Shown here piece by piece: positions 5,523-43,300 of a DNA stretch of 64,000 nucleotides. The notes under the pieces were generated by a model. It saw nothing but the letters and a program-made list of their open reading frames with translations. It was not told where the DNA came from and ran no database searches. The translations under genes and the position numbers were made by a program. The stretch covers positions 1,952,001 to 2,016,000 of the forward strand of contig OY970368.1 in the NCBI GenBank assembly GCA_963718615.1, in the 5' to 3' direction. Position 1 is the first letter of the stretch, and the number at the start of each line of letters is the position of its first letter. The stretch comes from an uncultured cyanobacterium. GTDB taxonomy: Bacteria; Cyanobacteriota; Cyanobacteriia; PCC-9006; JAAUQQ01.

Positions 5523-8500
5523 TTACAAGCCGTTTCCAATCAAAATAAACGGAGCCCAGTAGTAGGGATTGCTCAGTTGCTCGTCTGTCATGGCGCTGCC
5601 AGTTTTGGTGCTGACGACTTCGATGCCAGCGCGTTTTAGGCCCACGGTGGTGTAGTTGCTGGAGATGAGTGCTTTTTGAGCTTCTTGGAGGGCTTGGGCT
5701 TTGGTCATGCCTTTCTGTAGAGCAGCGTAGAAGGCATCCATTAGCAATTGGGTGCCGCCGTCATCGACTTGCCAGAGGGAGGCTAGGGCGGCTTTGGCCC
5801 CGGCACGTTGGAATTGGTAGCCTAAGCCTAGGATTTCTTCTCCTTCACCGAAGCTGCCCCCAATGCCGGTCTCACAGGCGGAGAGGACAACCAGTTCTAC
5901 GTCGGTCATGGTGAGATCTTTAATTTCTGGGAGAGGAATCGTTTCGCCGCTGCCGAGGGCGAGGAAGGAGTTGTTGGCATCACCGACGACGAATTTGCCA
6001 TGGGTTGCAAGGTGAATGATGCTGAAGTTATTGAGCTCAGGCATAAGATTCTTGCGATCGAAAGTTTGCTCACGCAGGACTTTTGTGGGGAAAAGCTGGG
6101 CGAGCGAATCGACTTCGTTGAGGGTGAAGGGTATGCCGCCGAACCGAAAATCTTGATTTCCGACTTGGATACTGCGAGATTGGTTACCCCAGGCTCCGGC
6201 GAGGATGCGGGGCGCGGTTTGGGGGGCGGTATCCAATTCAGTCAGGGATTGGGCGACGATGTTGTTGGTGCGGTAACGCTCGGCAATCCATTGGTTGCCA
6301 TCGTACAGGGCGGCGAGGGGAATGTAGCGGAGAATACCGTCGGGGGCGTAGATAAGGGTGTCGGGGTTGGCGGCTTCGAGGTCGGCTTCGAGGGGTTTGA
6401 GCAGCCAGGTGTAAAGTTGTTGAGCTAACCGTTTAGTTTCTTTGATATTGTTGGGGGATTGCAGGGCGCTACGGTATTGGGTGACGGTTTCCCGCAGTTT
6501 TTGGGCGTCGAAGTTGTTAACGGTTCGGCGAAGGGGTGGGCTGTTGGGGGTGGTGATGATGAGTTCGAGGCGATCGGGGAGAATGAGGGGGGAGATGAGG
6601 ACGGCTTTGGTGTTGCGCAGGTTGTCGCGCAGGTTGTTGAGGTCTTCGAGGGGGACGATTTGTCGGGAGGTTTTTCGGCTGACTTGGTTGAGCAGGGTTT
6701 GGATGGGGTCGCTGTCGATGAAGGTGTTGAATTGGTGATTAAGGTCTTTTTCGAGGGCGACGAGTTGGGCGAGGCGGTTTTCTTGTTGGGGGCTGAGAGG
6801 TTGTTGGGTTTTAAGGTGTCGGAGTTGGGTGAGTTCTTGGCCGATTTGGATGGCGGTTTTTTGGAGTTCGTTGTAGCGATCGAGAATTTCTTGCTCGGGT
6901 TTGAGGATAATTAATGGATCGTTGGTTGTGCCACGGGTGTTTTTGAGGTAGTCTTCGAGCTCTTGGACTTTGAGGAGATCAAGGACTTGTTGGGCTTCGA
7001 GGATGCGGTCTTGTTGGAGGAGGAGGTCGGCGAGGGTGCGGTAGGTGTCGGAGATGGAGTTGGTGTAGGATTCTTGGATTTCGCGTTCAAGGCGGGTGAG
7101 GTTGCCGCGAATGTTTTCGTAGGTGTTGATGGCTTGTTTGTAGAAGACGATCGCCAGTTCTGGCTGTTGTTGCTGAATTTGGAGGGCTCCGAGGTGGGCG
7201 AGGGTTTGGGCTTGGGTGGGTCGATCGCCGACTTCCTGGGCAAGGGCAAGGGATTGCTGCAAGGTGGTTTGGGCATCAGCGGTTTGGTTGAGTTGGGTTT
7301 GGGCTTGGCCGATGAAGCTTTGAGTGTAGGCTATGTCTCGTTTTGCGGAAAGTTTTTGGTCAACAGCGAGGGCTTGTTGGAAGAAGTCTAGGGCTTTTTC
7401 GGGTTGGGATTGGGCTAGGTAAACTTGACCGATGCCGCTGAGGATGTTGCCTTCGCGGCTGAGGGCTCCGTTGGTTTGGGTGATGGTGAGGGCTTGTTGA
7501 TAGTAGGTGAGGGCATCGGTGGTTTTGCCTTGAGCAATATAAACTTTGGCAATAACAGTCATTAACTCAGCTTCTAGTCCTTGGGCTTTTAATTTCCGAG
7601 CTAATGAGAGGGCTTGTTCATATTTATCTAGAGCGCGCTGAAACTGGCCCAGTTTGAGATAGACGCCAGCAGTTTGTCCTGCAGATTGAATGATTTGTTG
7701 TTGATCTCCGACTGTTTTGAAGAGTTCCTCTGCTTGTTGAACATATTGAAGTGCAGTAGCATAATCTCCTTGCTCAGAATAGAGTACACCCAAGTTGACA
7801 TATACAGTTGCTTGACCCTCACGATCTTGATATTCATTATGAATTGCAAGAGCTTGTCGATAGAAACTTTCGGATTTTGCCTGTTCACCTTGAGCACCAT
7901 AAATTGAACCAATATTGTTCAATATGCTACCTATTGCACCATGAACAGAATTACTCATTCGCTGAATAGCATCAATCGAACCTTTTGTTGGCTTAAGAAA
8001 TGCTTGGAATTCTTCACCACAGTCAAAAATCTCTGGAGGCGTATCAATGCCTAAATCACAGTGTAATAGTCGCAAATTTTCTGGAGTCGGACCTTTTGCA
8101 AGCTGATTGTAAGTCTTTTGAGAAGATGCAAGAATTTCCTGAAAAACAGACAAAGCATTATCATATTGACCTTGTACAGACCAAATTTTTGCAATATTAT
8201 TCAATATGATTTCTTTTGGTTCTTCAGAGTCAATTAACAAAGCTTGCTCATAAACGGACAAGGATTTAGTATAATTACCTTGATTTTCATAGATTGAAGC
8301 AATTCTAATAAGGACGAAAGCCTTGTAAAAATCAGATGTTTTTGCGTGATAGCTTTCCAATTGTTTATTTAGAAAATCTAGTCCCTTTACATATTCTCCA
8401 CGAAACTCATAAATATTTGCTATGCCCTGAAAGAGTACCATTTCAGCAAGATCGACAACTACCTGAAAGTCTTTAGAGTAATTTTGCCCAGAATTTATAT

Positions 8501-9383
8501 TCGACTCTCTTAGTGCTTGAGAAATAGTGAGTGCATTTTTTGCTTTTAAAAGGTATTCGTCGAAGTATTCTGGTTGATTAAGTTCTTCTACCCAAGAGGC
8601 ATAAATCATAAATTCTGAAAAAAGAGCTATGGACTCATTCTCTTTTTCCTCAGATGCTTTCGCCGCTTCTCGCATTTTGGGCATAATAGCTATGGCTTCT
8701 TCATATCGCCCAGATTCTCTCAAAGCATCAACTAAGTCATCATAAGTATTGAATATTGTGTCATAAATATTTTTAGCATCTTCAGGTATCCTAGTAAGGA
8801 CTTGCTCTTGAAGTGATAGAGACTGTCGATAAACTTCGATTGCTTGTGAGTATTGCTGTTGGGCTTGAAATGAGTTGCCTATTATTCGCAGACTTGAAAT
8901 AATCCAAGACCAATTATCAATTTCCTTAAAAACTGTCAGTGCCTGTTGCGCGTGACTCAGAGAGTTGTCAAAATCCCTCTGACCAAAATAAGTGAGAGAA
9001 AGATGCATCAGAAGGGTACCTTCTTCTTCACGATCGCCCAATTCCCTCCTAATCACAAGCGCCTGCTGATAAAAATCCAACGCTTTTTCGCTCTCCTTTA
9101 GCCCAGCATAAACATCACCAATTGCTTGGAGAGAGGTAGCTTGCCCAGAGCGATCGCCCACCCGCCGAAAAATCCCCAAAGCCTGCCCAAACGTTTCTAA
9201 CGCATCCTGCCACTTCCCTTGCAGCCGTAACTCTTCCCCGGCCTGGTTCAACCGAATCGCCTTCTCTCGCTGCCCCTCTGCCGTTTGTGCCAGCGCGATT
9301 GCCTCCGGCAACCCCAACCCCGTCACGCTAAGCCCCAAGCAAGTCAAACCCAACAGTCCTCCAATCCCTAATTGAGCCTTCAT
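5523..9383 (-). CDS. TPR-CHAT protease 1 with N-terminal signal peptide
   Basis: Hydrophobic leader ending ALAQ, many 40-aa TPRs, and a CHAT domain with HLATHG, VLSACETG and terminal YYWAPFILIGN. ATG 9383 preferred (AGGGG upstream) over GTG 9392. Confidence 0.92.
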   Translation of the reverse strand: MKAQLGIGGLLGLTCLGLSVTGLGLPEAIALAQTAEGQREKAIRLNQAGEELRLQGKWQDALETFGQALGIFRRVGDRSGQATSLQAIGDVYAGLKESEKALDFYQQALVIRRELGDREEEGTLLMHLSLTYFGQRDFDNSLSHAQQALTVFKEIDNWSWIISSLRIIGNSFQAQQQYSQAIEVYRQSLSLQEQVLTRIPEDAKNIYDTIFNTYDDLVDALRESGRYEEAIAIMPKMREAAKASEEKENESIALFSEFMIYASWVEELNQPEYFDEYLLKAKNALTISQALRESNINSGQNYSKDFQVVVDLAEMVLFQGIANIYEFRGEYVKGLDFLNKQLESYHAKTSDFYKAFVLIRIASIYENQGNYTKSLSVYEQALLIDSEEPKEIILNNIAKIWSVQGQYDNALSVFQEILASSQKTYNQLAKGPTPENLRLLHCDLGIDTPPEIFDCGEEFQAFLKPTKGSIDAIQRMSNSVHGAIGSILNNIGSIYGAQGEQAKSESFYRQALAIHNEYQDREGQATVYVNLGVLYSEQGDYATALQYVQQAEELFKTVGDQQQIIQSAGQTAGVYLKLGQFQRALDKYEQALSLARKLKAQGLEAELMTVIAKVYIAQGKTTDALTYYQQALTITQTNGALSREGNILSGIGQVYLAQSQPEKALDFFQQALAVDQKLSAKRDIAYTQSFIGQAQTQLNQTADAQTTLQQSLALAQEVGDRPTQAQTLAHLGALQIQQQQPELAIVFYKQAINTYENIRGNLTRLEREIQESYTNSISDTYRTLADLLLQQDRILEAQQVLDLLKVQELEDYLKNTRGTTNDPLIILKPEQEILDRYNELQKTAIQIGQELTQLRHLKTQQPLSPQQENRLAQLVALEKDLNHQFNTFIDSDPIQTLLNQVSRKTSRQIVPLEDLNNLRDNLRNTKAVLISPLILPDRLELIITTPNSPPLRRTVNNFDAQKLRETVTQYRSALQSPNNIKETKRLAQQLYTWLLKPLEADLEAANPDTLIYAPDGILRYIPLAALYDGNQWIAERYRTNNIVAQSLTELDTAPQTAPRILAGAWGNQSRSIQVGNQDFRFGGIPFTLNEVDSLAQLFPTKVLREQTFDRKNLMPELNNFSIIHLATHGKFVVGDANNSFLALGSGETIPLPEIKDLTMTDVELVVLSACETGIGGSFGEGEEILGLGYQFQRAGAKAALASLWQVDDGGTQLLMDAFYAALQKGMTKAQALQEAQKALISSNYTTVGLKRAGIEVVSTKTGSAMTDEQLSNPYYWAPFILIGNGL
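7017..7507. repeat. Near-identical ~490-bp segment shared with 11731-12221 (TPR-CHAT 1 vs 2)
   Basis: Base-by-base comparison at constant offset 4714 shows only scattered mismatches. Confidence 0.9.
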
Positions 9384-9418
9384 CGCTATCACCCCTGTTG
9401 ATTATGGTTTACAACATC

Positions 9419-9447
9419 TATACGGTGTAACCCTAGCTAGCTATGCA
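9419..9447 (-). promoter_or_regulatory. Cluster promoter motif TGCAT-N18-CGTATA upstream of TPR-CHAT 1
   Basis: Minus strand reads TTCCAGATTGCATAGCTAGCTAGGGTTACACCGTATAGATGT. Confidence 0.75.
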
Positions 9448-9473: not shown

Positions 9474-9971
9474 TTAGGACAAATTCTCCTCATCCACAAG
9501 CTCCAAAACTCGCTGATATAGCTCTGTTGCTATCCAAAAACCAGCTTGATGGACTAACGCATCCAGCAAGGGTTTTACTTTTACAATAAGTCCTCGATTC
9601 TTTGCCTCAACCAATACCCCCAAAATGCCTGTAAAGCGAAGGTTCAATCGAGCTGCGACCAGGCGTCCCCGATGCTCATCCATCAAGAGTTGCTCAGCCT
9701 GAACTTCGACGGCCAAGGCGATCGCTTCTGCTTCTCCCAGATCCAACTCATGACTCAACACGTTAACCAAAGTGCGATCTTTGACGGAATGAGTTGTAAT
9801 CCAGTCAAACGTTTGCACTTCTACTGACCCTGCCACTGGAAAATTTGGGTTGGTTAATTCTCGATAAACAGCCTCAGGAATCAGAATTGTTCCATAGAGA
9901 TCTCGCAAAAGATATAGGTGAGCAATTGCCGCTAAGTTATTAATGGGGGATGTATCACTAACTACAATCAC
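9474..9971 (-). CDS. PIN-domain protein (DUF3368-like), putative toxin
   Basis: MIVVSDTSPI...IPEAVYRE...LDLGEAEAIALA...LLMDEHRGR...TGILGVL; overlaps the upstream small gene by 4 nt. Confidence 0.85.
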   Translation of the reverse strand: MIVVSDTSPINNLAAIAHLYLLRDLYGTILIPEAVYRELTNPNFPVAGSVEVQTFDWITTHSVKDRTLVNVLSHELDLGEAEAIALAVEVQAEQLLMDEHRGRLVAARLNLRFTGILGVLVEAKNRGLIVKVKPLLDALVHQAGFWIATELYQRVLELVDEENLS

Positions 9972-10213
9972 AATCGACCCATCTCTCGCAAATTATTCAA
10001 ATCCTGTTCAAAATCTTCAACTCCGTAGTGAATCGGGATCTGACGACTGGCTAGCAGGTGCTGAAACATCACACGATGCATGCTGGCAAAGCGGCTAGCT
10101 TGGGCCAGCGTCAGCTTGTCTTTTTGAAATAGCATGACTGCGATCTCTTGACGCATTTCACTGGGAGTCATCCGAGCGACAGTCAGAATTTCGCTGGGAA
10201 TTAGAACACTCAT
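9968..10213 (-). CDS. UPF0175-like protein, putative antitoxin
   Basis: 81 aa with EIAVMLFQKDKLTLAQASRFA...HYGVEDFEQDL; AGGAGG RBS upstream; translationally coupled to the PIN gene. Confidence 0.85.
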   Translation of the reverse strand: MSVLIPSEILTVARMTPSEMRQEIAVMLFQKDKLTLAQASRFASMHRVMFQHLLASRQIPIHYGVEDFEQDLNNLREMGRL

Positions 10214-10263: not shown

Positions 10264-13200
10264 CTACAGCCCATTGCCAATCAAAATAAACGGAGCCCAA
10301 TGGAAAGGGTGTTTGGGATCAGTGCGTCCTGGAGTCGATCGCCCTGAGACAGAGGTTGGAACGATGGAGGCCCGGAACTTAGTCAAGCGAGTATTGCTAT
10401 CTTCGTTGTATAGTAAGCTAAGCTGAGCCTGCCGCAGAGCTTCGGCTTTAGTGAGTTCGCCGGAGGCCAGCAGCTCGTAGAAGCGTTGCATCAGTAGACT
10501 CGTGCTGTCGTCATTGACAGACCAAAGCGAGGCAATGACAGTTTTGGCACGACTGGCTTTGAGGAAATAGGAGCTCAGTCCTGCGATTTCTGTGCCGTCA
10601 TTGGCTTCACCTCCGAGGGCGGTTTGGCAGGCGGAGAGGACAACGAGATGGAGGTTGCTGAGACGCTCATGGAGGGTGTCGATTTCGGGGATTTTGAGAC
10701 GACTACCATCGCCCAGCACAATGTATGACTCCTGGGGTCGGCCCGGTGTAAAGGCTGCGTGGGTGGCGATGTGGAGAATGCGATGGCCAAGGAGGTTTTT
10801 CTCCAGTTGTTGGCGGGTGAAGTCTTGGTTGAGGTAGGTTTGGCCGGGGTAGATGCCGGTGGGGTCGTTGGGGGCTTGGCGGACGATGCGATCGAGTTCG
10901 TCTTCCACCGCAGGGAGAGGATCGAAGCCAGGGACCGCTTGGCTGAGGCCTAGGCCCAGAACATTGGCTTGGTTGACGGTGCCAAGGGTGTCTTCGGCAT
11001 CGGTGAGGCTGGGTGTGATGACGCTGGAGAGGGTATAGCGTTCGATCAGATACTGTTGGCCATTGAACAGGGCGGCCATGGGGATGTAGCGGGTGACGCG
11101 ATCGTTGACGAAGATCAGGTGTTTGGTTTTGCTCTGTTGCAGGGCGGATTCGAGGGGTTTGATCAGCCAGTCGTGGAGTTTTTGGCTGGTGGTTTGGAGG
11201 GCTTGGAGGTCGTTGCCGGATTGGAGTTGTTCGCGGAACTGTTGGACGGTTTTGGCTAATTCTGCTTGGGTGACGGAAACTTCGATGCTGCCCGCAGCGC
11301 CGGGGACGGCGTAGAGGAGCCAGAGTTTTTGGTCGGTGATGAAGGGATAGATTAAAACTGCATCTGGATTGGCTTTGAGCAGCTTTTCGGCTTCGCCGTT
11401 GAGGTTGTCGGGGTTTTGGAAGATGTCGTCGTCGTGGCGATTTTTGCGAACGTCGGTCTTGAAGGTTTCGACGCTTTGGGTGTACTGAGCCCTCAAGGTA
11501 CCCGACTGTGAAAACAATTGGTCTAACTCGCCACAGTTGGTTTGTTTGCATTCGGTGAGTTTTTTGCCAAAGTCAATGAGGTTGCCGTGGGCGTTGATGA
11601 CGGGTTGTTCGGCGTCGTTGTAGAGGAGTTCTGTGCCGGTCCAGGTGGCGCGGGTGTTGGTGAATTCGCGGAGTTCGGCGAGTTTGAGGAGGTCGAGGAC
11701 TTGTTGGGCTTCGCCGATGCGGCCTTGGCTGAGGAGGAGGTCGGCGAGGGTGCGGTAGGTGTCGGAGATGGAGTTGGTGTAGGATTCTTGGATTTCGCGT
11801 TCAAGGCGGGTGAGGTTGCCGCGAATGTTTTCGTAGGTGTTGATGGCTTGTTTGTAGAAGACGATCGCCAGTTCTGGCTGTTGTTGCTGAATTTGGAGGG
11901 CTCCGAGGTGGGCGAGGGTTTGGGCTTGGGTGGGTCGATCGCCGACTTCCTGGGCAAGGGCTAGGGATTGCTGCAAGGTGGTTTGGGCATCAGCGGTTTG
12001 GTTGAGTTGGGTTTGGGCTTGGCCGATGAGGCTTTGGGTGTGAGCCATTTCTCGTTTTGCGGAAAGTTTTTGGTCAACAGCGAGGGCTTGTTGGAAGAAG
12101 TCTAGGGCTTTTTCGGGTTGGGATTGGGCTAGGTAAACCTGGCCGATGCCGCTGAGAATGTTGCCTTCGCGGCTGAAGGCTCCGTTGGTTTGGGTGATGG
12201 TGAGGGCTTGTTGATAGTAGGCGAGGGCTTGCTGATAGTAGGATGGGTCTTTGGTGGTTTTGCCTTGGATGATATAGGCGCTTGCGATGGCAGTGATTAA
12301 CTCAGCTTCTAGTCCTTGCGCTTTTAATTTTCGAGCTAATGCGAGGGCTTGGTCATATTTATCTAGAGCGCGCTGAAACTGGCCTAGTTTGAGATAGACG
12401 GTGGCAGTTCCTCTTGCAGATTGGATAATTTCTTGTTGATCTCCAACTGTATCGAAGAGTTCTTCTGCTTGTTGACCATATTGAAGTGCAGTGGAATAAT
12501 CTCCTTGTTCAAAATAGCGTGCACTTAGATTGAGGTGTACAACTGCTTGGCCCGCAAGATCTTGATATTCATAATAAATTTTGAGGGCTTGTTGAGAGAA
12601 GCTTTCTGCTTTTACATACTCACCTTGAGCGCTGTAAATTGAACCAATATTATTTAAGTAAATTCCTATCGTTCGCTTAGCATAGTTTTGACCTTCTACA
12701 AGGAGCTTCTGAAGAAAGATTTTCTGAACTGTCTGATCTTCAGAATCTCCACAAAAAACTGAATAATCAGAAAGGTATTTTGAATATTCACTCTTCATTT
12801 CTTGACACCATAGCTTTATATTGCTTGAAATTAATCCTTTTTCAAAAAAATCGTACTCTTGTTGTTTATATTTAATTAATTCATGAAAGATAGACAAGGC
12901 TTTTTCATATTGGCCTTGCTTGTCGTAAATAAAGGCTATATTATTCTGTATGACCTGTGCGACTTCAAAGTGATTCGACTGAAGAGCGACTGATAGAGCT
13001 TGCTCGTAAATCAATAGAGATTGATGATAATCACCCTGATCCGAGTAGATTGCCCCGATCTGAGCAGAAGCCAGGAGTTTTTTTCCAAGAGATATCTTAT
13101 GCTGATACGTACTTAATGCATTGTTTACTAGACGCAATGATCTTTCATATTCTCCACGAAAACTGTAAATACTGGCAATTTCAAGTAATGTAGAAAACTC

Positions 13201-14451
13201 ATTTTCGACGTTTTCATCAGCCATCTTAGAGTCTATTTTGCGTAAACTTTGGGCAATATCTAGCATCTTTTGTGATTTTTCTAAAGATTGATCGTACTGT
13301 CCAAGTTGCCTCAGCCTAGTTGCCCATCCAAAGTAAATTGAGATTTCTAGATCAAGAACTTCATTCTCATCATTTTTGTTTCCAGAAGCTTTTGCTGCTT
13401 CTAGTATTTGAGGCAAAATTTCGACTGAATTTTCGTATCTATCGAGTAAGTTGTACACATTTATTAGGTGATAGCACGCAATAAAGATTGATCTATTTAC
13501 GAGGCGATTATAAATTAATTGTTCTTCTGTTGAGAGGCTGAAGAGAAATTTTCTATAAAATTCTAAGGCTTTTTGATCAGCTTCAATCGCTAACTCATAT
13601 TTTTGCTTTTGTTGATAGATTTCACCTAGTGCACTCCAAGCTGAAGCAACCTTCATGGGTCTATTAAGCTCTTGAAAGATTGCGAGAGCTTGCTGATAGT
13701 AATCAATCGCTTTGTCGTATTGCTCTAGTGCAGAGTAAGCCTCAGCCATACTGTCAAAGGAATTAGCAACCCCCATAGGTTGATTGAGTTCTTGAAAGAT
13801 TGTGAGAGCTTGCTGATAATAATCAATAGATTTGTCATATTGCTCTAGTGCAGAGTAAGCCTCAGCTCCACTAAAGAAAGAATTAGCAGCTTCAATAGGT
13901 TGATTGAGTTCTTGAAAAATCTCAAGAGCTTGCTGAAAGTAAGTAATAGCTTTGTCATATTGCCCTAACGCAACGTAAGTCTGAGCGATCTGATAGGAAA
14001 CATTAGCTTCCCATGAGCGCAATGGGGGCAAATTCAATTCTTGCGTAATCACAAGCCCCTGCTGATAAAACTCCAACGCTTGCCCATGCTCCCCCAAGTG
14101 AGAATAAACCCTACCTATTCCAAAAAGAGTCCCAGCTTCACCAGCCCGATTAGCTTTGCCAAGCTCCGAATCATCGCCCCCACCCCGCCGAAAAATCCCC
14201 AAAGCCCGCTCAAACCTCTCCCTCGCCTGCCGAAACACCTCCCCCGCCTCCTCAACCTTCCCCTGCCCCTGCAACTGCTCCCCCTGCTCCCGCAACTGCC
14301 CCCCCTCCTCAAGCAACCGCTTCCCAGCCTCCAGCCCCTCCGCCGCCGTCTGCGCCAGCACCCCCCTCTCCGGCACCCCCAACCCCGCCGTCACCCCCAA
14401 CCCCAAACAAGTCAACCCCAGCAACGCCCCAAATCCAGATTGCAACCTCAT
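10264..14451 (-). CDS. TPR-CHAT protease 2 with N-terminal signal peptide
   Basis: Leader ending VLAQ, TPR array, CHAT motifs HIATHA, VLSACQTA and HPFHWAPFILIGN. Confidence 0.92.
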   Translation of the reverse strand: MRLQSGFGALLGLTCLGLGVTAGLGVPERGVLAQTAAEGLEAGKRLLEEGGQLREQGEQLQGQGKVEEAGEVFRQARERFERALGIFRRGGGDDSELGKANRAGEAGTLFGIGRVYSHLGEHGQALEFYQQGLVITQELNLPPLRSWEANVSYQIAQTYVALGQYDKAITYFQQALEIFQELNQPIEAANSFFSGAEAYSALEQYDKSIDYYQQALTIFQELNQPMGVANSFDSMAEAYSALEQYDKAIDYYQQALAIFQELNRPMKVASAWSALGEIYQQKQKYELAIEADQKALEFYRKFLFSLSTEEQLIYNRLVNRSIFIACYHLINVYNLLDRYENSVEILPQILEAAKASGNKNDENEVLDLEISIYFGWATRLRQLGQYDQSLEKSQKMLDIAQSLRKIDSKMADENVENEFSTLLEIASIYSFRGEYERSLRLVNNALSTYQHKISLGKKLLASAQIGAIYSDQGDYHQSLLIYEQALSVALQSNHFEVAQVIQNNIAFIYDKQGQYEKALSIFHELIKYKQQEYDFFEKGLISSNIKLWCQEMKSEYSKYLSDYSVFCGDSEDQTVQKIFLQKLLVEGQNYAKRTIGIYLNNIGSIYSAQGEYVKAESFSQQALKIYYEYQDLAGQAVVHLNLSARYFEQGDYSTALQYGQQAEELFDTVGDQQEIIQSARGTATVYLKLGQFQRALDKYDQALALARKLKAQGLEAELITAIASAYIIQGKTTKDPSYYQQALAYYQQALTITQTNGAFSREGNILSGIGQVYLAQSQPEKALDFFQQALAVDQKLSAKREMAHTQSLIGQAQTQLNQTADAQTTLQQSLALAQEVGDRPTQAQTLAHLGALQIQQQQPELAIVFYKQAINTYENIRGNLTRLEREIQESYTNSISDTYRTLADLLLSQGRIGEAQQVLDLLKLAELREFTNTRATWTGTELLYNDAEQPVINAHGNLIDFGKKLTECKQTNCGELDQLFSQSGTLRAQYTQSVETFKTDVRKNRHDDDIFQNPDNLNGEAEKLLKANPDAVLIYPFITDQKLWLLYAVPGAAGSIEVSVTQAELAKTVQQFREQLQSGNDLQALQTTSQKLHDWLIKPLESALQQSKTKHLIFVNDRVTRYIPMAALFNGQQYLIERYTLSSVITPSLTDAEDTLGTVNQANVLGLGLSQAVPGFDPLPAVEDELDRIVRQAPNDPTGIYPGQTYLNQDFTRQQLEKNLLGHRILHIATHAAFTPGRPQESYIVLGDGSRLKIPEIDTLHERLSNLHLVVLSACQTALGGEANDGTEIAGLSSYFLKASRAKTVIASLWSVNDDSTSLLMQRFYELLASGELTKAEALRQAQLSLLYNEDSNTRLTKFRASIVPTSVSGRSTPGRTDPKHPFHWAPFILIGNGL

Positions 14452-14484: not shown

Positions 14485-14513
14485 TATACGAATTAGCCCC
14501 AGCCCGTTATGCA
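14485..14513 (-). promoter_or_regulatory. Cluster promoter motif TGCAT-N18-CGTATA upstream of TPR-CHAT 2
   Basis: Minus strand reads TTCCGGATTGCATAACGGGCTGGGGCTAATTCGTATAAATGT. Confidence 0.75.
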
Positions 14514-17753: not shown

Positions 17754-17793
17754 TATTCAGGTATCCCTGATTCCTTTGCATCTTTCATTTCCT

Positions 17794-35983: not shown

Positions 35984-36067
35984 CAGACAACCCCTTGAGT
36001 AAACTGATTCCCTCTTCCAGCCCAGACCCAAACACCAGACCAAAAGACAGAAATGGCAACAGAAGCA

Positions 36068-36096
36068 TATACGGCAGAACCCTCGCAACCTATGCA
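36068..36096 (-). promoter_or_regulatory. Cluster promoter motif TGCAT-N18-CGTATA upstream of TPR-CHAT 4
   Basis: Minus strand reads CTGCATAGGTTGCGAGGGTTCTGCCGTATATG. Confidence 0.75.
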
Positions 36097-36111: not shown

Positions 36112-36933
36112 ATGATCAAAAACAGGATTCGAATCATCCGCAGCCGCGCCACTCCAGAAGAGATACAAGAAATGCTAGAGAATCTTAGACTTCACCTCAC
36201 CCGTATTCAGGCATTAACTAATAGTGAAACTAATAGTGATGCTGACGAACATATTATTCTCCATCTGATTCGTGAAAGTCAGTACCTGATCGAATGGACT
36301 GTACCCACCCTAGACTTGGAGAAAGACGAGAGCCTGAACATTGCCACAGAACTCATCCGCCTTCAGCGACAACTCAGCCAATGGAAACTGCAATGGCATG
36401 AGCTGTGGGCAGATAGTCGGTCGCGGGAGGCGATCGCAAAAACTGCTCAACAATGGTGTCAATCGATTGACCAGTGGTCCGTACGCTCATCGCGGGTTAG
36501 AAATCAATTCCGATTCAGTGGCCTAAAGGCCATTGCCGATCAGAATGAACGGTGCCCAGTAGTAGGGATGGCTGAGGTTGCCTTTAATCTGTGGGGGTTT
36601 TCCGTCGGCAGTGGCGACAACAATGCTGGCTCGGGAGCCGCCGACTTGGGAATAGTCGTTTTTGATCAGGGCAATCTGGGTTTGGCGGAGGGCTTCGGCT
36701 TTGGGCAGGCCGAGGTCGAGGGCAACGTAGAAGGCGTTCATGAGTTTTTGGGTGCCGCCGTCATCGACTTGCCAGAGGGAGGCAATGGAGGCTTTGGCCC
36801 CGGCGCGTTGGAATTGGTAGCCCAAGCCGAGGATTTCTTGGCCATTGCTAAACTGACCGCCGAGGCCGGTTTCGCAGGCGGAGAGGACAACGAGATCAAC
36901 GCCGTTGAGGTTCCAGGCTTCGATGTCACGTAG
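36112..36933 (+). CDS. Hypothetical protein, probably a fused or eroded remnant; only ~36112-36500 looks genuinely coding
   Basis: MIKNRIRIIRSRATPEEIQEMLE recalls a DUF5674 N-terminus and is followed by ESQYLIEWT...ELIRLQRQLSQW. With no stop, the frame continues antisense into TPR-CHAT 5. Confidence 0.45.
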   Translation: MIKNRIRIIRSRATPEEIQEMLENLRLHLTRIQALTNSETNSDADEHIILHLIRESQYLIEWTVPTLDLEKDESLNIATELIRLQRQLSQWKLQWHELWADSRSREAIAKTAQQWCQSIDQWSVRSSRVRNQFRFSGLKAIADQNERCPVVGMAEVAFNLWGFSVGSGDNNAGSGAADLGIVVFDQGNLGLAEGFGFGQAEVEGNVEGVHEFLGAAVIDLPEGGNGGFGPGALELVAQAEDFLAIAKLTAEAGFAGGEDNEINAVEVPGFDVT

Positions 36934-38766
36934 GGTGACGGGTTTGCCATCGCCAAAGAGGATAAAGGAGTCGTCGGGACTGCCGATGACGAGGGCTCCG
37001 TGGGTGGCAAGGTGGATGATGGTGTGGTCGCCCATTTGGGGGAGGGTGTCCTGGGCGTTGAAGGTGCGATCGAAGAGTTGCACGGTATTGGGAATGAGTT
37101 TGCCCAGATTTTCGACTTCGACTTTGGTGAAGGGGAGGCCGTTGAATTGGAATTGTTCGCCACCGAGGTTAAAACTGTACTGGCCGGTGGTGAAGGCTCC
37201 GGCGAGGATGCTGGGGGGTTTAGGGGGTTGGGGGGTGAGCTGGGTGAGGGCGGCGGCGGTGATGTTGTTGATGCGATAGGTTTGGATCAGCCAGTCTTGG
37301 CCGTCGTGGAGGGCGGCGAGGGGAATATAGCGGAGGATGCCGTCGGGGGCGTAGAGGATGGTTTGGGCTTCAACGGTGGCGAGGTCGGTTTCAAAGTCTT
37401 TGAGCAGCCAGGTGTAGAGTTTTTGGGCGATGGGTTTGGGGTCTTGGCGGGGGTCTTGGAGGGCGGCGCGGAAGGCTTGGATCGTTTGCTGGAGTTCGGT
37501 TCGGGAAACGTTAACGGTGTGGCGGCGGGGTGGGGTTTGGGGGTTGGCGGTGGTGAGGATGAGTTCGATGCGATCGTCAAAAATCACGGGATAGAGCAAG
37601 ACGGCGTGGGGGTCGGCGGCGGCGAGGATGGGTTGGACGCTGAGGAGCCGTGCCATTTCGTCGGCGAGGTCGGGGTCACGGGTTTCGGGGCTGAGTTGGG
37701 CGATCAACTGCTGAACTTGGGGGCTGCGGAGAAATTGGTTGAAGTCTTGGGTGATTTTTTGTTGGAGTTGGAGGAGCTGGTTGAGGCGTTGGTTGTCGGC
37801 GGGGGTGCGTTGGGCGAGGGGGATGGCGCGGAGGCGGGTGAGGTCTTGGCCGATGGGGATGGTTTGGGCGAGGATGTCTTGGATGCCGCTGAGGATGAGT
37901 TGTTCGGGGTGGAGGGTGGGGATGTTGCCGGGGGCGGTGTTGCGGCGGACGTTGGTGAGGTAGTCGTCGAGTTCTTGGATTTTGAGGAGGTCGAGGACGC
38001 GTTGGGCTTCGAGGATGCGGTTTTGTTGGAGGAGGAGGTCGGCGAGGGTGCGGTAGGTGTTGGCGATGGAGTCGGTGTAGGTTTGTTGGAGGGTTTGATT
38101 GAGGGGTTGGAGGGTTTGGCGGATGGTTTCGTAGGTGTTGACGGCTTGTTTGTAGTAGAGGATGGCGAGTTGGGGTTGATTTTGTTGCTCAAGCAATAAT
38201 CCAACGTTGCCTAGGGCTATAGCGAGACCATTGCGATCGCCCATTTCCTCATAAATGGGCTGCGCTTGCTGATAGTATTCCAGTGCCTTGGCGTAGTTGC
38301 TCAAAGAGCCATAGGCAATGCCCTGATTCGTCAGCACGTTAGCCAGACCATTGCGATCGCCCACCTCCTCAAAAATGGGCTGCGCTTGCTGATAGTATTC
38401 CAGTGCTTTGGTGTAGTTGCTCAAGGAGAGATAGGCAACGCCCTGATTCGTCAGCACTTTAGCCAGACCATTGCGATCGCCCACCTCCTCAAAAATGGGC
38501 TGCGCTTGCTGATAGTATTCCAGTGCTTTGGTGTAGTTGCTCAAAGAGCCATAGGCAAACCCCTGATTCATCAGCACGTTAGCCAGACCATTGCGATCGC
38601 CCACCTCCTCAAATATCGGCTGCGCTTGCTGATAGTATTCCAGTGCTTTGGTGTAGTTGCTCAAAGAGCCATAGGCAAACCCCTGATTCATCAGCATGTT
38701 AGCCAGACCATTGCGATCGCCCACCTCCTCAAAAATGGGCTGCGCCTGCTGATAGTGGTAGTCCAA

Positions 38767-39207
38767 TTATGTGGGTGCTGGAGAGAATGAAGCGGCATGA
38801 GCCTGCTTAAGGCGCAATTGCTGGTTGTAATGGTGAACGAAATTCCAGATCGCAGCCTCGTGGTTCTCTTGTTTCTTTGAAAACGAGAGCGCCTTTCGGA
38901 CCAAGCGCGACACCCTTTGCCGCAGGGTGCAGTTGAACCTCTCGATGTAGCTCGTCAGCCCGCTTTCTTTCCCAACCGCTCGGTGGCGTTGGCTAGGAAG
39001 CACACAGGCATAGCTCTCCCAATAATCGGTGTAGATGACTGCACATTGGCGGTACACTCCCGGTAGAGACCGCCATAAAGCTTCGGCAGATTTAGCACTT
39101 CGGTCCCCGATATAAAGGCCAATGATTTCGCGAGTGTCCGCATCTAGAGCAATCCAAACCCACTGTTTATTTCCTTTATGGTCCACGAACGACCAGAGTT
39201 CGTCCAT
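38767..39207 (-). CDS. insB: IS1 transposase, InsB (DDE) part
   Basis: MDELWSFV...WVWIA...YTDYWESY...IERFNCTLRQRVSRLVRKALSFSK. Confidence 0.9.
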   Translation of the reverse strand: MDELWSFVDHKGNKQWVWIALDADTREIIGLYIGDRSAKSAEALWRSLPGVYRQCAVIYTDYWESYACVLPSQRHRAVGKESGLTSYIERFNCTLRQRVSRLVRKALSFSKKQENHEAAIWNFVHHYNQQLRLKQAHAASFSPAPT

Positions 39208-39215
39208 CTGGACCG

Positions 39216-39527
39216 TCAGAGCTTTTTTACTTTCTTCGTCACTTCCACCTCCCGAGCAACGGTTTTAGCTTTGGCGTTGACGTAGGTCTGAATGCAGCTC
39301 TCGGAGCGCTGCATCACCCGAGCAATTCCAGCAATGGCCAGCCTTTCAAGCAATAAACGTTCGAGCAAGGCTATCTCTTCATCGCTCAAGGGAAGGGATT
39401 TCGGAGTCAGGACAAACCGGCGATGGCAATCTCGACATTTATAGCTTTGAGTACCGCGATCGTTGAAGCCGTTACGGCTGATATCTTCAGATAGACAGTT
39501 AGGACAATGAAGCAGCTCTTGAGTCAT
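39216..39527 (-). CDS. insA: IS1 transposase, InsA (Zn-finger/HTH) part, joined to InsB by a predicted -1 frameshift at A AAA AAG (39222-39228)
   Basis: CPNC...YKCRDC. A -1 slip gives ...V K K A L T V Q M D E, in frame with InsB. Confidence 0.88.
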   Translation of the reverse strand: MTQELLHCPNCLSEDISRNGFNDRGTQSYKCRDCHRRFVLTPKSLPLSDEEIALLERLLLERLAIAGIARVMQRSESCIQTYVNAKAKTVAREVEVTKKVKKL

Positions 39528-40829
39528 CGCAATTGGCACAGAAGGGTCTTACCCAGTTTGCTTTTTCTTTCTCTAATGGCCACAACATACTCATCCCCCA
39601 GCTAAAGGCACTACCCTGATAGTATTCCAGCGCTTTGGTGTAGTTGCTCAAGGAGAGATAGGCAAGGCCCTGATTCGTCAGCACTTTAGCCAGACCATTG
39701 CGATCGCCCACCTCCTCAAAAATGGGCTGCGCCTGCTGATAGTATTCCAGTGCTTTGGCGTAGTTGCTCAAAGAGCCATAGGCAAGCCCCTGATTCCCCA
39801 GCACCTTAGCCAGACCATTGCGATCGCCCATTTCCTCATAAATGGGCTGCGCTTGCTGATAGTATTCCAGTGCCTTGGCGTAGTTGCTCAAAGAGCCATA
39901 GGCAATGCCCTGATTCGTCAGCACGTTAGCCAGACCATTGCGATCGCCCACCTCCTCAAAAATGGGCTGCGCTTGCTGATAGTATTCCAGTGCTTTGGTG
40001 TAGTTGCTCAAGGAGAGATAGGCAACGCCCTGATTCGTCAGCACTTTAGCCAGACCATTGCGATCGCCCACCTCCTCAAAAATGGGCTGCGCTTGCTGAT
40101 AGTATTCCAGTGCTTTGGTGTAGTTGCTCAAAGAGCCATAGGCAAACCCCTGATTCATCAGCACGTTAGCCAGACCATTGCGATCGCCCACCTCCTCAAA
40201 AATGGGCTGCGCCTGCTGATAGTATTCCAGCGCTTTGGCGTAGTTGCTCAAGGAGAGATAGGCAATGCCCTGACTCGTCAGCACGTTAGCCAGACCATTG
40301 CGATCGCCCACCTCCTCAAAAATGGGCTGCGCTTGCTGATAGTATTCCAGCGCTTTGGCGTAGTTGCTCAAGGAGCCATAGTCAATGCCCTGATTCATCA
40401 GCACGTCAGCCAGACCTGGGCGATCGCCCACCTCCTCAAATATTGACTGAGCTTGTTGATAAAGTTTAATCGCTTTGCCATAGTCACTCAGGTAGGAATA
40501 GGCAATACCCTGATTCTTCAGCACATTAGCAAGACCACGATCGTCACCCACTTCTTCAAAAATCACCTGAGCCTGCTTCAAAACCTCCAACGCCTCCCGT
40601 GGCTTCCCCGTTTTCCAGAGCCGCTTCCCCTCCTCCAATAACCGCTCCCCCTCCTCCCGCCGCCGCTCCACCCCAACCTCCGACCCCCCAGTTTCTCCCA
40701 CAACCAAAACCCCCTCCAGCTCCGCCCCAACCACCGGCCCCAACCCCAGCCCCAACATCCCCAACGCCAACGCCAAACCCACCCAAAATCGCATTGCCAT
40801 AGATCAACCCAGAGTTCTTCTATTACATC

Positions 40830-40858
40830 TATACGCATTAGCCCCACCGCCCCATGCA
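40830..40858 (-). promoter_or_regulatory. Cluster promoter motif TGCAT-N18-CGTATA upstream of TPR-CHAT 5
   Basis: Minus strand reads TTCCGGATTGCATGGGGCGGTGGGGCTAATGCGTATAGATGT. Confidence 0.75.
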
Positions 40859-40907: not shown

Positions 40908-40936
40908 GGCATAACTCCCCACCCAGACAACAGATA
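40908..40936 (+). promoter_or_regulatory. Cluster promoter motif variant GGCAT-N18-CAGATA upstream of the subtilase
   Basis: TGGCATAACTCCCCACCCAGACAACAGATAAAT. Confidence 0.45.
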
Positions 40937-40981
40937 AATTCAGGCAACAAATCCATTGAAAAACACAGCCCCCTCAGAACC

Positions 40982-43300
40982 ATGAAAAACCTACCCCTGC
41001 TCACACTCCTCCTCACCAGCATCCTCATCACCACCACCACCCTCCCCATCCTCCACCATCCCCCCCAATCCATCCTCCTCGCCCAAACCCCACCCCAAGA
41101 CCCCCCACCCCAAGATCCCCCACAAGCCCCCAGCGAATTTTCCTATCGCTTCTATGACCAAAACATCCCCCTCACCCTCCACCCCGATCAGATCGCAGTC
41201 GAATTCAAACCCCAACCCCGTGACAGCACTAGGGGCAATACGGGCACTCGGGGCACCGATACCCGCCCCCATTATCTCAAACTCCAAGACACCCTCCAAA
41301 ACACCCTCCAAACCACCGAACCCAGCCCCAGCCGCGCCCCAACTCGTTCCACCGCCCCTCAGATTACCGTACAACCTCTAGGCACCCGCTACGCCCTCAT
41401 CACCTTACCCAAAACCCGCAGCCGCAGCCTAGAAGACCGCCTCACCCAAAGCCTAGAAGCCCCCTACATCACCGGACAGCTCCCGGTCTTTCAACGCCCC
41501 AATCAGCAAACGTCCATCGTCCTCCCCAACGAAATCGTCGTCAGCGTCGAACCCGACCTCTCCCCCAGCCAAACCGCAGCCACCCTCGATCGCTTTGGCC
41601 TCGACATCATTCGCCCCCTGCGCTTTAGCCAAAACAAATACCTCGTCAAATCCCGCAAAGACAGCGGCACCCATATTCTCAGAGTCGCCCAGCAACTCAC
41701 CACCCTGAGCGGCATCCAATCCGCCACCCCCAATTTTGTCCAATCCGTTGCCTACGGCGTCAACCCGCTCAACCTAGACGATGCCCGCTGGCTCAATCCA
41801 GCCCAAAATCCGCCAGACATCGGCCCCGCCAGCGCCATCGACTTTAGCAAACTCACCCCCCGCCAATCCAGCCAATCCGATCAATCCACCGACCCCGCCC
41901 AAAATCCCCTCCTCGCCCTCGCTTGGCACCTCGATAGCCGCCCCCTACAAAAACTGGCCCTACCAAGAACAGATGTTCATGCAACCGAAGCCTGGGAAGC
42001 GGGTCAGCAGGGCCAAGGCACCGTCGTTGCCGTGATCGATAGCCTCATTCAATGGGATCATCCCGACCTAGCCGCCAATCTTTACACCCTGGGGGATGAC
42101 GTGACCGATAAACTCCCCGGTGAAACCCAGGGTTGGGATTTTACGGAAGATGAAGCTGGTGACTGCGATTCGGCAGAAGCCGATGATTGTAGTTTGGGTG
42201 ATCCAGATACCCGCATTAGCGAGACAGAACTGGAGGTTTTGCGATCGCATTTCCAAAACACCTTCGCATTATCCGACGAGGCACTGCTCGCAACCTATGA
42301 GGAATGGGTAGAGAGCCTACGCAGCGAGGATGCTGACCTCTCCGATCGCCAAATAGCCAACCTGATTCGCAATTACATTCGTGACGATATTGCAGGAGAA
42401 TTTCATGGTACCTGGTCTGCGGGGGTGATTGCGGCATCTCCGGCGAGCGCGATCGGAGCGGTGGGCGTTGCCCCCAAGGCAAAAATTTTACCCGTGCGCG
42501 TCTTTGGCCTGGGGGGCAGTATTACATCAGCCGGATTGATTGAGGCGATCGGCTACGCCGCCGAGCGGGGCGCAGATGTGATCAACATGAGCCTCGGCAG
42601 TTTGTTGCCCGATCAAGACCTCACCGATCAAGTGTTCTCTGTCTTAGATAAACATCCCAACTTAGTGATCGTCGCTGCCGCAGGCAATGAAAACCTAGAT
42701 GGCGTCGGTTTTCCAGCAGCGATTCCGGGGGTTGTATCCGTTGGGGCCACAAATCTAGCAGGGCAACGGACGTCTTATAGCAGTTTTGGAGGACAGCTAG
42801 ATGTAGTTGCACCAGGGGGCGATCAGTCACAGCGACCCAGTGGTGGCATTTTGACCACGGGAGGGACGGGCTCAGAGGCTTGGTGGCAGGGGATTGATCC
42901 CCCTAAAACGGCGTGGGGTCCCTCGCTGGATCCACGGGGACAATATGTGCAGGTTCAGGGGACATCGTTTTCTGCACCGACGGTTGCGGGTGTGTTGGCC
43001 TTGATGCGCAGTGCGGATTTGAGCCATGCGTTGAGTCGTCAACAACTGCTTGAAATTTTACAGGAGACGGCCAGTTATAGCAGCCTCAGATTGACCCAGG
43101 CGGATAAGAATCACTATCGGTTGCAGAAAGAGATTGGCTTCGGCACGGTTTTCGCTTTCCCGCTTTCCCGTCCCTCAGGAATTCATGAACGGCCTGAGGC
43201 GATTTCACCAGAGCGGTACTATTTCGGCTGGGGATTGGTGAATGCGGCAGCGGCAGTCGAACAAGTGTTGCAGCGGGGGTCAGGTCGACAGTCCCCATAA
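40982..43300 (+). CDS. Secreted S8 (subtilisin-like) serine protease
   Basis: Signal peptide, long prodomain, VAVIDS (Asp), FHGTWSAG (His), AAAGN, GTSFSAP (Ser). Confidence 0.92.
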   Translation: MKNLPLLTLLLTSILITTTTLPILHHPPQSILLAQTPPQDPPPQDPPQAPSEFSYRFYDQNIPLTLHPDQIAVEFKPQPRDSTRGNTGTRGTDTRPHYLKLQDTLQNTLQTTEPSPSRAPTRSTAPQITVQPLGTRYALITLPKTRSRSLEDRLTQSLEAPYITGQLPVFQRPNQQTSIVLPNEIVVSVEPDLSPSQTAATLDRFGLDIIRPLRFSQNKYLVKSRKDSGTHILRVAQQLTTLSGIQSATPNFVQSVAYGVNPLNLDDARWLNPAQNPPDIGPASAIDFSKLTPRQSSQSDQSTDPAQNPLLALAWHLDSRPLQKLALPRTDVHATEAWEAGQQGQGTVVAVIDSLIQWDHPDLAANLYTLGDDVTDKLPGETQGWDFTEDEAGDCDSAEADDCSLGDPDTRISETELEVLRSHFQNTFALSDEALLATYEEWVESLRSEDADLSDRQIANLIRNYIRDDIAGEFHGTWSAGVIAASPASAIGAVGVAPKAKILPVRVFGLGGSITSAGLIEAIGYAAERGADVINMSLGSLLPDQDLTDQVFSVLDKHPNLVIVAAAGNENLDGVGFPAAIPGVVSVGATNLAGQRTSYSSFGGQLDVVAPGGDQSQRPSGGILTTGGTGSEAWWQGIDPPKTAWGPSLDPRGQYVQVQGTSFSAPTVAGVLALMRSADLSHALSRQQLLEILQETASYSSLRLTQADKNHYRLQKEIGFGTVFAFPLSRPSGIHERPEAISPERYYFGWGLVNAAAAVEQVLQRGSGRQSP

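Follow-up and report, generated by a model that had tools for sequence, protein, structure and literature searches.

In the sigmaE-RseA-DegS/RseP system, proteolysis carries a signal from the envelope to an alternative sigma factor that is autoregulated. In type III-E Craspase, the TPR-CHAT protease Csx29 reportedly cuts Csx30 to free an RpoE-type sigma factor. A periplasmic TPR-CHAT protein coupled across the membrane to a dedicated sigma factor and a defence regulon is described, in the passages that deal with DdvA-DdvS of Myxococcus xanthus, by Bernal-Bernal et al. (Sci Adv 2024, PMC11506125; NAR 2018, PMC6061681). The locus analyzed here is a 38-kb island (positions 5523-43300) in a window of 64,000 nucleotides from an uncultured cyanobacterium (assembly GCA_963718615.1, contig OY970368.1, positions 1,952,001-2,016,000 of the forward strand; all coordinates below are window positions). 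In it, genes for a divergent sigma-70-family protein (SIGL), a DUF1822 protein, a CHAT-CHASE2 sensor-protease and a DUF928-like protein lie among genes for further proteases, most of them with predicted export signals, and a sequence-only reading of the window had proposed that together they form an envelope-to-sigma proteolytic cascade. The reading favored here, for which the chance is judged to be slightly better than even, is that the island is an expanded caspase-sensor/sigma/DUF1822 system: a protease-gated, self-amplifying sigma regulon whose products include exported proteases.

The three-gene core of this arrangement is already known, having been catalogued computationally in 2021. The passages on it by Kaur, Iyer, Burroughs and Aravind (eLife 2021, PMC8195603) describe EACC2-caspase proteins with a variable C-terminus, such as CHASE2, next to genes for a sigma factor of the extracytoplasmic function (ECF) class and DUF1822, and they propose that a stimulus activates the protease, which leads to sigma-driven transcription. 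The earlier statement that the wiring was undescribed is therefore not correct for the core, as both the sigma/DUF1822/caspase-sensor set and its stimulus-protease-sigma logic are in those passages. A fusion of caspase fold and CHASE2 was listed as a cyanobacterial domain architecture by Jiang et al. (2010, PMC2853523), and one paper on DUF928 notes that CHASE2 and DUF928 genes adjoin in Nostoc punctiforme. In the literature searched on DUF1822, DUF928, EACC2, CHASE2 with CHAT or caspase, and orthocaspases, no description was found of the larger set, i.e., the core with its protease arm and motif. Four points go further than that literature: the S8 protease and twin-arginine translocation (Tat) caspase genes are linked to the core, DUF928-like genes pair with CHASE2 sensors, sigma and DUF1822 are predicted to form a complex, and a motif recurs across genomes; the 2021 description is thereby extended from three genes to a candidate regulon.

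The core consists of four genes on the forward strand. The SIGL gene (14859-16244, 461 aa) is directly upstream of the DUF1822 gene (16475-17686, 403 aa; Pfam DUF1822, E 1e-26), and the sensor-protease gene (17737-20166) is followed by the DUF928-like gene (20163-20909, 248 aa), whose start overlaps the sensor stop by 4 nt. The SIGL subfamily was found in 52 of 401 cyanobacterial genomes, representing 37 of 155 genera, and 40 of its loci with 9-kb flanks were annotated by hidden Markov models (HMMs) from this genome and two alignments. DUF1822 was directly downstream of sigma in 37 of the 40 loci and permuted in one more, and a counterpart of the sensor-protease, detected with an HMM built on residues 1-400 of the paralogues in this genome, was present in 30. 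A canonical CHAT gene was within 9 kb in 14 loci and absent from 26; S8 was present in seven, RTX in three and the caspase in one. Orthologues of the trypsin and the cyclase were near the core in none of the 40 loci. Conservation of gene order, which the sequence-only reading had asked for, extends to the core and to the CHAT/S8/caspase arm described below, but not to the trypsin and the cyclase.

The same genome holds seven DUF1822 loci, several of which repeat the order sigma, DUF1822, CHAT-CHASE2, DUF928. A second copy of the SIGL subfamily (C1:5649343-5654488; locus L004, E 1.1e-43 to the window's copy) stands after a CHAT-CHASE2 gene and a DUF928 gene, and no DUF1822 was detected near it. 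At another paralogous core locus (L003, 5174-6467, -), the sigma gene is read as two overlapping open reading frames (ORFs) of 333 and 158 aa, of which only the second matches Sigma70_r4; a frameshift or programmed slippage could be the cause. A paralogous sensor (L007, 2661-4718, +) carries a Peripla_BP_6/ANF-receptor domain in place of CHASE2, an example of the variable C-terminus.

SIGL belongs to a family of cyanobacterial proteins of 450-480 aa labelled 'hypothetical' (147 matches; no precomputed Pfam domain is given for any of the 120 listed). Its relation to sigma factors was recognizable through a 431-aa paralogue in the same genome, which itself passes TIGR02937 (E 2.6e-26) and which was matched by the SIGL family profile over 266 columns (hhalign 95.5%, E 1.5e-8). 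An AlphaFold2 (AF2) model of SIGL with a mean predicted local distance difference test (pLDDT) score of 89.3 was compared with known structures by Foldseek, and the first six rows and most of the 49 listed were sigma chains of RNA polymerase holoenzymes. The 'sigma-like' label given from sequence is recognizable only at the level of profile and fold, and the protein has no Pfam match and lies below the TIGR02937 cut-off. With that sub-threshold score, and with 461 aa as against the compact two-domain plan of about 200 aa in ECF (group 4) factors, SIGL is accepted here as a probable divergent sigma-70-family protein and not as an 'ECF sigma', an assignment that draws on profile and fold comparison.

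SIGL and DUF1822 are, by computation, an almost obligate gene pair whose products are predicted to bind. Co-folding gave ipSAE values of 0.70, 0.68 and 0.68 in three runs, with 0.00 for the best of three controls, partner pLDDT of at least 67 and contact agreement of at least 37%. Of 80 solved complexes, 58 reach the mark applied to such scores, as do 2 of 110 mismatched pairs, a calibration that is only rough here because our own alignments were supplied. The predicted interface includes residues that are invariant in the families, namely W178, Y218, R222 and C231 of sigma and W49 and E141 of DUF1822. An invariant glutamate pair of DUF1822, E141/E142, is located at this predicted surface. The structural prediction of a sigma:DUF1822 interaction, which the sequence-only reading had called for, was therefore positive (ipSAE 0.68 against 0.00 for the best control). 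The AF2 model of DUF1822 (pLDDT 80.2) has an alpha/beta N-domain and a C-terminal beta-sandwich, and is not that of a TPR protein. Its N-domain bears a weak likeness to Hjc-type resolvases (Foldseek TM-score about 0.46-0.49 on the target, E 0.0065-0.046). The proposed role of DUF1822 as an anti-sigma factor found no counterpart in this model, and it remains a functional guess because the model resembles no known anti-sigma domain.

The sensor-protease combines a CHAT domain (residues 138-353, E 2.6e-8) with CHASE2 (E 2.1e-12). The CHAT domain precedes the first transmembrane helix and CHASE2 follows it (transmembrane segments at 401-421, 710-728 and 746-786), a layout from which the CHAT domain is predicted to be cytoplasmic and CHASE2 periplasmic. 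Its GHS and NSC motifs (FFAGHS/FNSC) align with the canonical CHAT dyad. Translation of this gene probably begins at the ATG at 17794 rather than at the GTG of the longest ORF.

The 248-aa protein encoded after the sensor had been called DUF928. It has no match to Pfam DUF928 (PF06051) even at E <= 1, and a word-indexed search with it found no relatives. An exhaustive search found 282, and 32 of 60 aligned relatives match DUF928. When the family profile was compared with the genome's own DUF928 paralogues, the hhalign probability was 94.4% (E 9.2e-8); the single sequence gave only 6.7%, so that the family profile was needed. On this profile evidence the protein is a divergent, signal-peptide-bearing relative of DUF928, and the label stands at profile level but not as a Pfam match of its own. 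Its relatives carry a conserved G-x-R-G...C stretch ahead of the domain, which is degenerate in the window protein. Conceivably, this stretch could be a processing site for Arg-specific caspase homologues.

The DUF928-like gene follows the CHASE2 form of the sensor. Across the 40 loci, a DUF928 or DUF928-like gene accompanies 15 of 18 sensors with detectable CHASE2 and 2 of 12 without, in agreement with the pairing that the sequence-only reading had drawn, at least as co-occurrence. Within this genome, a DUF928 gene is at most 5 kb from 10 of 19 CHASE2 genes, and 2000 randomizations gave a mean of 0.5 and a maximum of 3. Because of this co-occurrence across loci and within the genome, CHASE2 sensors in general appear to have DUF928-type proteins as their cognate periplasmic partners, in the sense of genes that occur together and not of proteins that bind.

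Around the core lies a battery of proteases, and every gene named in the earlier reading is at its stated position; the Pfam scan recovered them apart from sigma and DUF928, whose labels hold at profile level only. The five TPR-CHAT genes are TPR-CHAT 1 (5523-9392, -, 1289 aa; CHAT E 2.7e-62, TPR_12 E 1e-79; dyad HLATHG/LSACET; hydrophobic, signal-like residues 8-26), TPR-CHAT 2 (10264-14451, -, 1395 aa; CHAT E 2.6e-60; dyad present; signal-like N-terminus), TPR-CHAT 3 (20967-24062, +, 1031 aa; CHAT E 3.4e-64), TPR-CHAT 4 (31451-36088, -; CHAT E 2.8e-55) and TPR-CHAT 5 (36523-40800, -). TPR-CHAT 3 begins 57 nt past the DUF928-like gene and is probably in the same operon; several other genomes likewise have a CHAT gene that follows their DUF928-like gene in the same orientation. 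The longest ORF of TPR-CHAT 4 starts with TTG, and its true start is probably M36 (35983), after which a signal-like segment follows. The others are a caspase of family C14 (25293-27632, -; Peptidase_C14 E 4.8e-22; dyad YSGHGS/DSCHSG), with a twin-arginine motif (RRHFL) and a probable true start at M36 (27527), an S8 subtilase (40982-43300, +, 772 aa; Peptidase_S8 E 7.8e-48; HGT and GTS motifs) and a Trypsin_2 protease (24103-25068, -, 321 aa; E 7.6e-18), the last two with signal-like N-termini and predicted to be exported. Catalytic motifs are present in all nine proteases, and the His-Cys dyads align across all six CHAT domains.

This clustering is real and exceeds chance. The genome has 50 CHAT matches in 6.1 Mb, and six were reached in only 3 of 3029 sliding 38-kb windows, all three being this region, which is flanked by ordinary metabolic genes (a coenzyme A ligase/GNAT protein on one side, an aldo-keto reductase and an M17 aminopeptidase on the other). 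The CHAT domains of the five TPR-CHATs form one clade of old paralogues with 36-53% identity (support 0.72, one foreign member inside).

Most of these proteases are predicted to act outside the cytoplasm. Signal-like hydrophobic segments, judged from Kyte-Doolittle profiles alone, begin the five TPR-CHATs, the trypsin, the S8 subtilase and the DUF928-like protein. The caspase is a conserved Tat substrate because all 14 full-length orthologues carry an RRxF[LVI] twin-arginine motif at residues 3-22. Hydrophobic segments and twin-arginine motif together are consistent with the topology that had been proposed, in which exported proteases surround a sensor with its CHAT domain inside and CHASE2 outside.

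A promoter-like motif that resembles TGCATA-N17-nnTATA is common to island genes. It precedes TPR-CHAT 1 (9419-9447, -; TGCATA-N17-CGTATA, 27 nt upstream), TPR-CHAT 2 (14485-14513, -; TGCATA-N17-CGTATA), TPR-CHAT 4 (36068-36096) and TPR-CHAT 5 (40830-40858; TGCATG-N17-CGTATA). The form TGCAT[AG]-N17-CGTATA occurs four times in the whole genome, each time upstream of one of these four genes, and TGCATA-N17-NNTATA occurs five times, three of them in the region where 0.03 would be expected. A looser pattern, fitted to the window's own sites, has 8 of its 31 genome-wide matches in the region and adds the genes for sigma (14700-14728, +; TGCATA-N17-TAGATA, about 130 nt upstream, a candidate autoregulatory promoter), the sensor (17725-17753, +; TGCATA-N17-AAGACA), the caspase (27626-27654, -; TGCATA-N17-TGAATA, upstream) and the RTX protein (29704-29732, -, upstream). 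Its 23 matches elsewhere are scattered, often inside long ORFs, and none adjoins a related gene. Variants with one mismatch or N16 spacing precede the S8 gene (40908-40936, +; GGCATA-N17-CAGATA, about 45 nt upstream, found twice in the genome), the cyclase gene (27732-27760, +; TGCATA-N17-CGTACG, about 45 nt upstream, found once in the genome) and the trypsin gene (25202-25229; a candidate with N16 spacing). The DUF3368, PDDEXK_2, 162-aa and insertion sequence (IS) genes are without it.

The statement that almost all of the set shares one upstream motif was accordingly borne out, with the exact form at TPR-CHAT 1, 2, 4 and 5 and looser forms at the sigma, sensor, caspase, RTX, trypsin, cyclase and S8 genes. 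The companion proposal, that freed sigma amplifies the whole set, would fit a common motif that includes the sigma gene itself. In three genes (sensor, caspase and TPR-CHAT 4) the motif overlaps the start of the longest ORF, which is a GTG in the sensor and a TTG in TPR-CHAT 4. Downstream starts are considered probable for these genes for that reason, and the resulting N-termini are as in orthologues, with a Tat motif or a signal peptide. Separately, a palindrome, AAAAATCGATTTTT, is present at 14629-14642 in the intergenic region between the sigma gene and TPR-CHAT 2; its core, AATCGATT, also occurs at 29738 (between the RTX and 162-aa genes), 2311 and 36461, giving four in the window against 1.8 expected.

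In other genomes, 12 of 15 sigma, 5 of 9 S8, 6 of 14 caspase and 11 of 28 CHAT genes have the hexamer TGCATA at a distance of 30-160 nt upstream. It is rare upstream of genes internal to the operon (1 of 15 DUF1822, 2 of 14 sensor and 0 of 11 DUF928-like genes), and 5.7% of random 320-nt segments from the same islands contain it. The 38 foreign sites were chosen by the hexamer only, yet their 5' flanks are alike in being A-rich, AAssT follows on the 3' side, and at a distance of 17 nt downstream there is a -10-like AGAGATATA block; 14 of them have the form TGCATA-N17-NNTATA. For the island's own genes, strict searches (exact shared k-mers; ATTGCAT-N18-CGTATAGAT with up to 3 mismatches) returned only three sites.

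The exported-protease arm was also found to be linked to the core in many genomes by computation, through its TPR-CHATs, its S8 subtilase and its Tat-exported caspase. Orthologues of the S8 subtilase (E <= 1e-117) and the caspase (E <= 1e-118) were sought in 51 other sigma-positive genomes. S8 orthologues occurred in 14 genomes: nine at 1.6-18.5 kb from sigma and one at 4.3 Mb, with the remaining four on separate contigs of fragmented assemblies. Where the distance could be determined, i.e., where the gene shares a contig with sigma, 9 of 10 were within 18.5 kb. The caspase gave 29 matches in 21 genomes; 14 were at 6.8-27 kb from sigma, none was farther away on the same contig and 15 were on other contigs, so that all 14 determinable cases were within 27 kb of the sigma orthologue. 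Among the sigma-positive genomes 21 of 51 have a caspase orthologue, among the sigma-negative ones 9 of 349, counts that are uncorrected for relatedness. In five genomes the order is sigma, DUF1822, sensor, DUF928-like, CHAT, S8, CHAT(s), caspase on a single strand, and rearranged versions occur in others. The trypsin family is multi-copy in other genomes without consistent linkage, its three best orthologues being on contigs that lack a sigma gene, and neither the trypsin nor the cyclase appears to be a conserved member of the set. Co-inheritance of one CHAT subfamily with the core was considered and rejected, as the CHAT genes fall in at least four clades.

In the mechanism that we favor, DUF1822 would hold sigma inactive. 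A periplasmic signal involving the DUF928-like protein would be read by CHASE2 and switch on the cytoplasmic CHAT protease, which would lift the block by cutting DUF1822 or itself. Reading the motif, sigma would then step up expression of its own operon and of a whole set of proteases whose site of action is outside the cytoplasm; in this genome the genes for the trypsin, the cyclase and the RTX protein would have been drawn into the same regulon. The TPR-CHATs are placed at the output of this scheme, a position favored over that of obligatory input because the core lacks a nearby canonical CHAT in 26 of 40 loci.

Several observations weigh against this reading. Sigma identity is one: SIGL has no Pfam match and scores only 18.7 bits (E 1e-3) against a cut-off of 42.9 for TIGR02937, only 4 of 53 aligned relatives touch Sigma70_r4_2 (best E 0.0011), and the Foldseek scores are weak (best E 0.025, none at or below 0.001, TM-score at most 0.3). 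SIGL could regulate by binding DNA without associating with RNA polymerase. No anti-sigma factor is among the Foldseek PDB matches of the DUF1822 model, which has neither the helical anti-sigma domain (ASD) fold nor that of the zinc-binding class, and the predicted complex is silent on whether DUF1822 would inhibit sigma or help it. For the motif, the P-value of the looser pattern is circular because the pattern was fitted to the window's own sites, and the pattern in other genomes was chosen with those sites already known. A position weight matrix from other genomes is not specific in this higher-GC genome, where only the RTX (rank 1) and caspase (rank 16) sites of the window are in its top 40. 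The exact motif was not found in 20 relatives, and the window-specific form TTGCAT-N16-21-CGTATA had three matches in the first 40 loci, none upstream of an annotated gene. The linkage has its own bias: the genomes compared are related and not independent, and the 15 islands with extended maps were picked for a nearby caspase or S8, which biases their composition. The CHAT genes beside the core are polyphyletic (at least four clades). At five caspase sites in four sigma-negative genomes there is no sigma, DUF1822 or sensor gene within 20 kb; a CHAT gene adjoins the caspase at four of the five, and the protease arm can therefore stand alone, since such caspase and CHAT pairs exist without the sigma module.

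The best surviving alternative, which we hold to be unlikely, is the Toll/complement-like cascade of the sequence-only reading. Exported TPR-CHATs would be variable primary sensors and, with S8 and the caspase, would process the DUF928-like protein into a CHASE2 ligand; the CHAT protease would cleave DUF1822, and sigma would feed back on the set. The predicted topology fits such an order, the DUF928-like gene does co-occur with CHASE2 sensors, and positive feedback would arise from the common motif. Also consistent with such a cascade are the CHAT domains of the five local TPR-CHATs, a single clade of old paralogues (36-53% identity), and TPR units of 120 nt that are up to 94% alike, a sign of recent turnover of repeats, and the G-x-R-G...C stretch could, by conjecture, be where processing occurs. 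Nothing separates sensors from outputs, however, and genes that bear sigma's own promoter motif are more simply its products. Moreover, with no canonical CHAT within 9 kb in 26 of 40 core loci, TPR-CHATs are not required upstream of the sensor. Less probable again is its widest form, an extracytoplasmic surveillance cascade in which fast-changing TPR-CHATs would detect foreign or damaged proteins, the DUF928-like ligand would be made with S8 and the Tat-caspase, CHAT would destroy DUF1822 and sigma would multiply the arsenal, as CRISPR-independent immunity or a cell-death switch.

It is also rather improbable that the motif is read by another factor, for example a general sigma with an activator or repressor, and that the complex of the 461-aa protein with DUF1822 is of a non-sigma kind, regulatory or nucleic-acid-binding. 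The 17-nt spacing of the -35 and -10 elements is also that of ordinary sigma-70 promoters, the similarity of SIGL to sigma factors is weak, and the N-domain of DUF1822 has a restriction-endonuclease/Hjc-like fold (TM-score about 0.46-0.49). On the other hand, the paralogue that the family profile matches is itself above the TIGR02937 cut-off (E 2.6e-26), sigma chains fill the first six Foldseek rows and most of the 49 listed, and SIGL is the only conserved DNA-binding candidate in the island; the passages of PMC8195603 on these systems independently call the neighboring gene an ECF sigma. Two independent modules (sigma/DUF1822/sensor, and TPR-CHAT with Tat-caspase and with or without S8) kept together by co-transfer or co-selection in a conflict island are highly unlikely. 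For them speak the caspase and CHAT pairs that lack a sigma module, the four or more clades of CHAT genes found beside the core, and passengers (IS1, PDDEXK_2, DUF3368) of mobile or toxin-antitoxin-like character. Against them, one motif stands ahead of both sigma and protease genes in many genomes, the 14 caspase orthologues whose position in sigma-positive genomes could be determined are all within 27 kb of sigma, and in five genomes all the genes are on one strand.

To our knowledge, the function of the cyanobacterial caspase homologues (orthocaspases and CHAT proteins) has been open since their discovery, and almost none has a known substrate or trigger. The favored sigma regulon would place some of them in a compact circuit of one candidate sigma, one predicted partner, one sensor-protease, one secreted candidate ligand and a motif that marks about ten transcription units, which mostly encode exported proteases. 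If sigma reads the motif, the regulon could be switched at will and the targets of exported caspase-like proteases could be searched for directly.

One member of the battery has been interrupted. TPR-CHAT 5 is split into a CHAT half (36523-38766; E 2.7e-59) and a TPR half (39499-40800) by an IS1-family element (InsA/InsB; 38757-39615, -, 859 nt; DDE_Tnp_IS1 E 3.2e-21, Zn_ribbon_InsA E 1.1e-8), bracketed by 8-nt target duplications at 38749-38756 and 39616-39623. The element has at least nine near-identical copies in the genome (99.5-100% identity) and is probably active. Removing it and one copy of the duplication in silico gave an open 1136-aa frame, and because the frame is thereby restored the insertion is taken to be recent. 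Five TPR-CHAT genes with aligned dyads are thus present, as had been claimed, but the fifth is broken inside its TPR array and four are intact. The TPR-CHAT 4 and 5 arrays (33216-35229, 38220-38756 and 39616-40537) consist of tandem 120-nt (40-aa) units with matches up to 94% and up to 7.7 copies per array, and units so alike are a sign that the repeats have recently expanded or been homogenized.

The remaining genes of the island are not proteases. A class III nucleotide cyclase (27804-28697, +, 297 aa; Guanylate_cyc E 6.4e-62) has one predicted transmembrane segment and scores 54 bits against a Pycsar (PycC-like) cyclase model of PADLOC, a match that probably reflects generic class III homology. 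An RTX-repeat protein (28790-29560, -, 256 aa) matches HemolysinCabind (E 9.1e-38). Between TPR-CHAT 1 and 2, a DUF3368 (PIN-like) gene (9474-9971, -; E 2e-17) overlaps a small upstream ORF of 81 aa (9968-10213, -), possibly as a toxin-antitoxin pair. A transposase-like (Rpn-type) gene with PDDEXK_2 and DUF4351 (30463-31476, +; E 8.5e-72) overlaps the end of TPR-CHAT 4 by 26 nt at its 3' end. PADLOC, run on 10 proteins, gave generic domain-level matches only (TPR, caspase, subtilase, cyclase) and none for the four core proteins.

Compared with the systems set out in the passages of PMC8195603, the island has the same N-terminal caspase-fold protease with a His-Cys dyad (CHAT E 2.6e-8), a variable C-terminal sensor (here CHASE2 with transmembrane helices, and Peripla_BP_6 in the paralogue) and adjoining sigma and DUF1822 genes. 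For the N-terminal module, where the published proteins have EACC2, the comparison drew on an HMM from paralogues of the island's own genome, which matches in 30 of 40 loci. The exported TPR-CHAT/S8/Tat-caspase arm and the promoter motif are not in those passages, and DUF928 has no occurrence in the main text of PMC8195603; its supplements may list such neighbors. DUF1822 is called a 'TPR protein' there, whereas the model here is alpha/beta with a beta-sandwich, and the 'ECF sigma' is here a 450-480-aa subfamily labelled 'hypothetical'. In the part of PMC2853523 concerned, architectures are listed rather than a gene neighborhood or a regulon. HetF is not indicated, as the NF045509 model gives a score of 13.6 bits with a cut-off of 1200.

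The favored scheme resembles Craspase in that a CHAT protease would liberate a sigma factor through cleavage of the protein that partners it. What sets it off here would come from the periplasm, however, as opposed to being RNA-guided, and no Cas7-11, Csx30, Csx31 or CRISPR array was detected (Pfam on ORFs, PADLOC on 10 proteins and a tandem-repeat scan that found only the 120-nt TPR repeats). From sigmaE-RseA the island differs in protease family, partner fold and membrane layout, and it contains no site-2 protease gene.

The closest experimentally studied analogue, as far as the passages on it go (PMC11506125, PMC6061681), is DdvA-DdvS, for which proteolysis is proposed as the trigger, as it is here. 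In DdvA, a TPR-CHAT region with an incomplete His-Cys site is fused to a transmembrane zinc-binding anti-sigma factor. The TPR-CHATs of the window are separate proteins with complete dyads, which begin with a signal-like segment, have no N-terminal cytoplasmic domain, match only TPR and CHAT in Pfam and are predicted to be exported. The partner of sigma is a soluble DUF1822 protein in place of the DdvA anti-sigma, and the candidate regulon consists of proteases as against the CBASS or CRISPR regulon of DdvS. The membrane protein of the island has the opposite layout to DdvA, with CHAT inside and CHASE2 outside.

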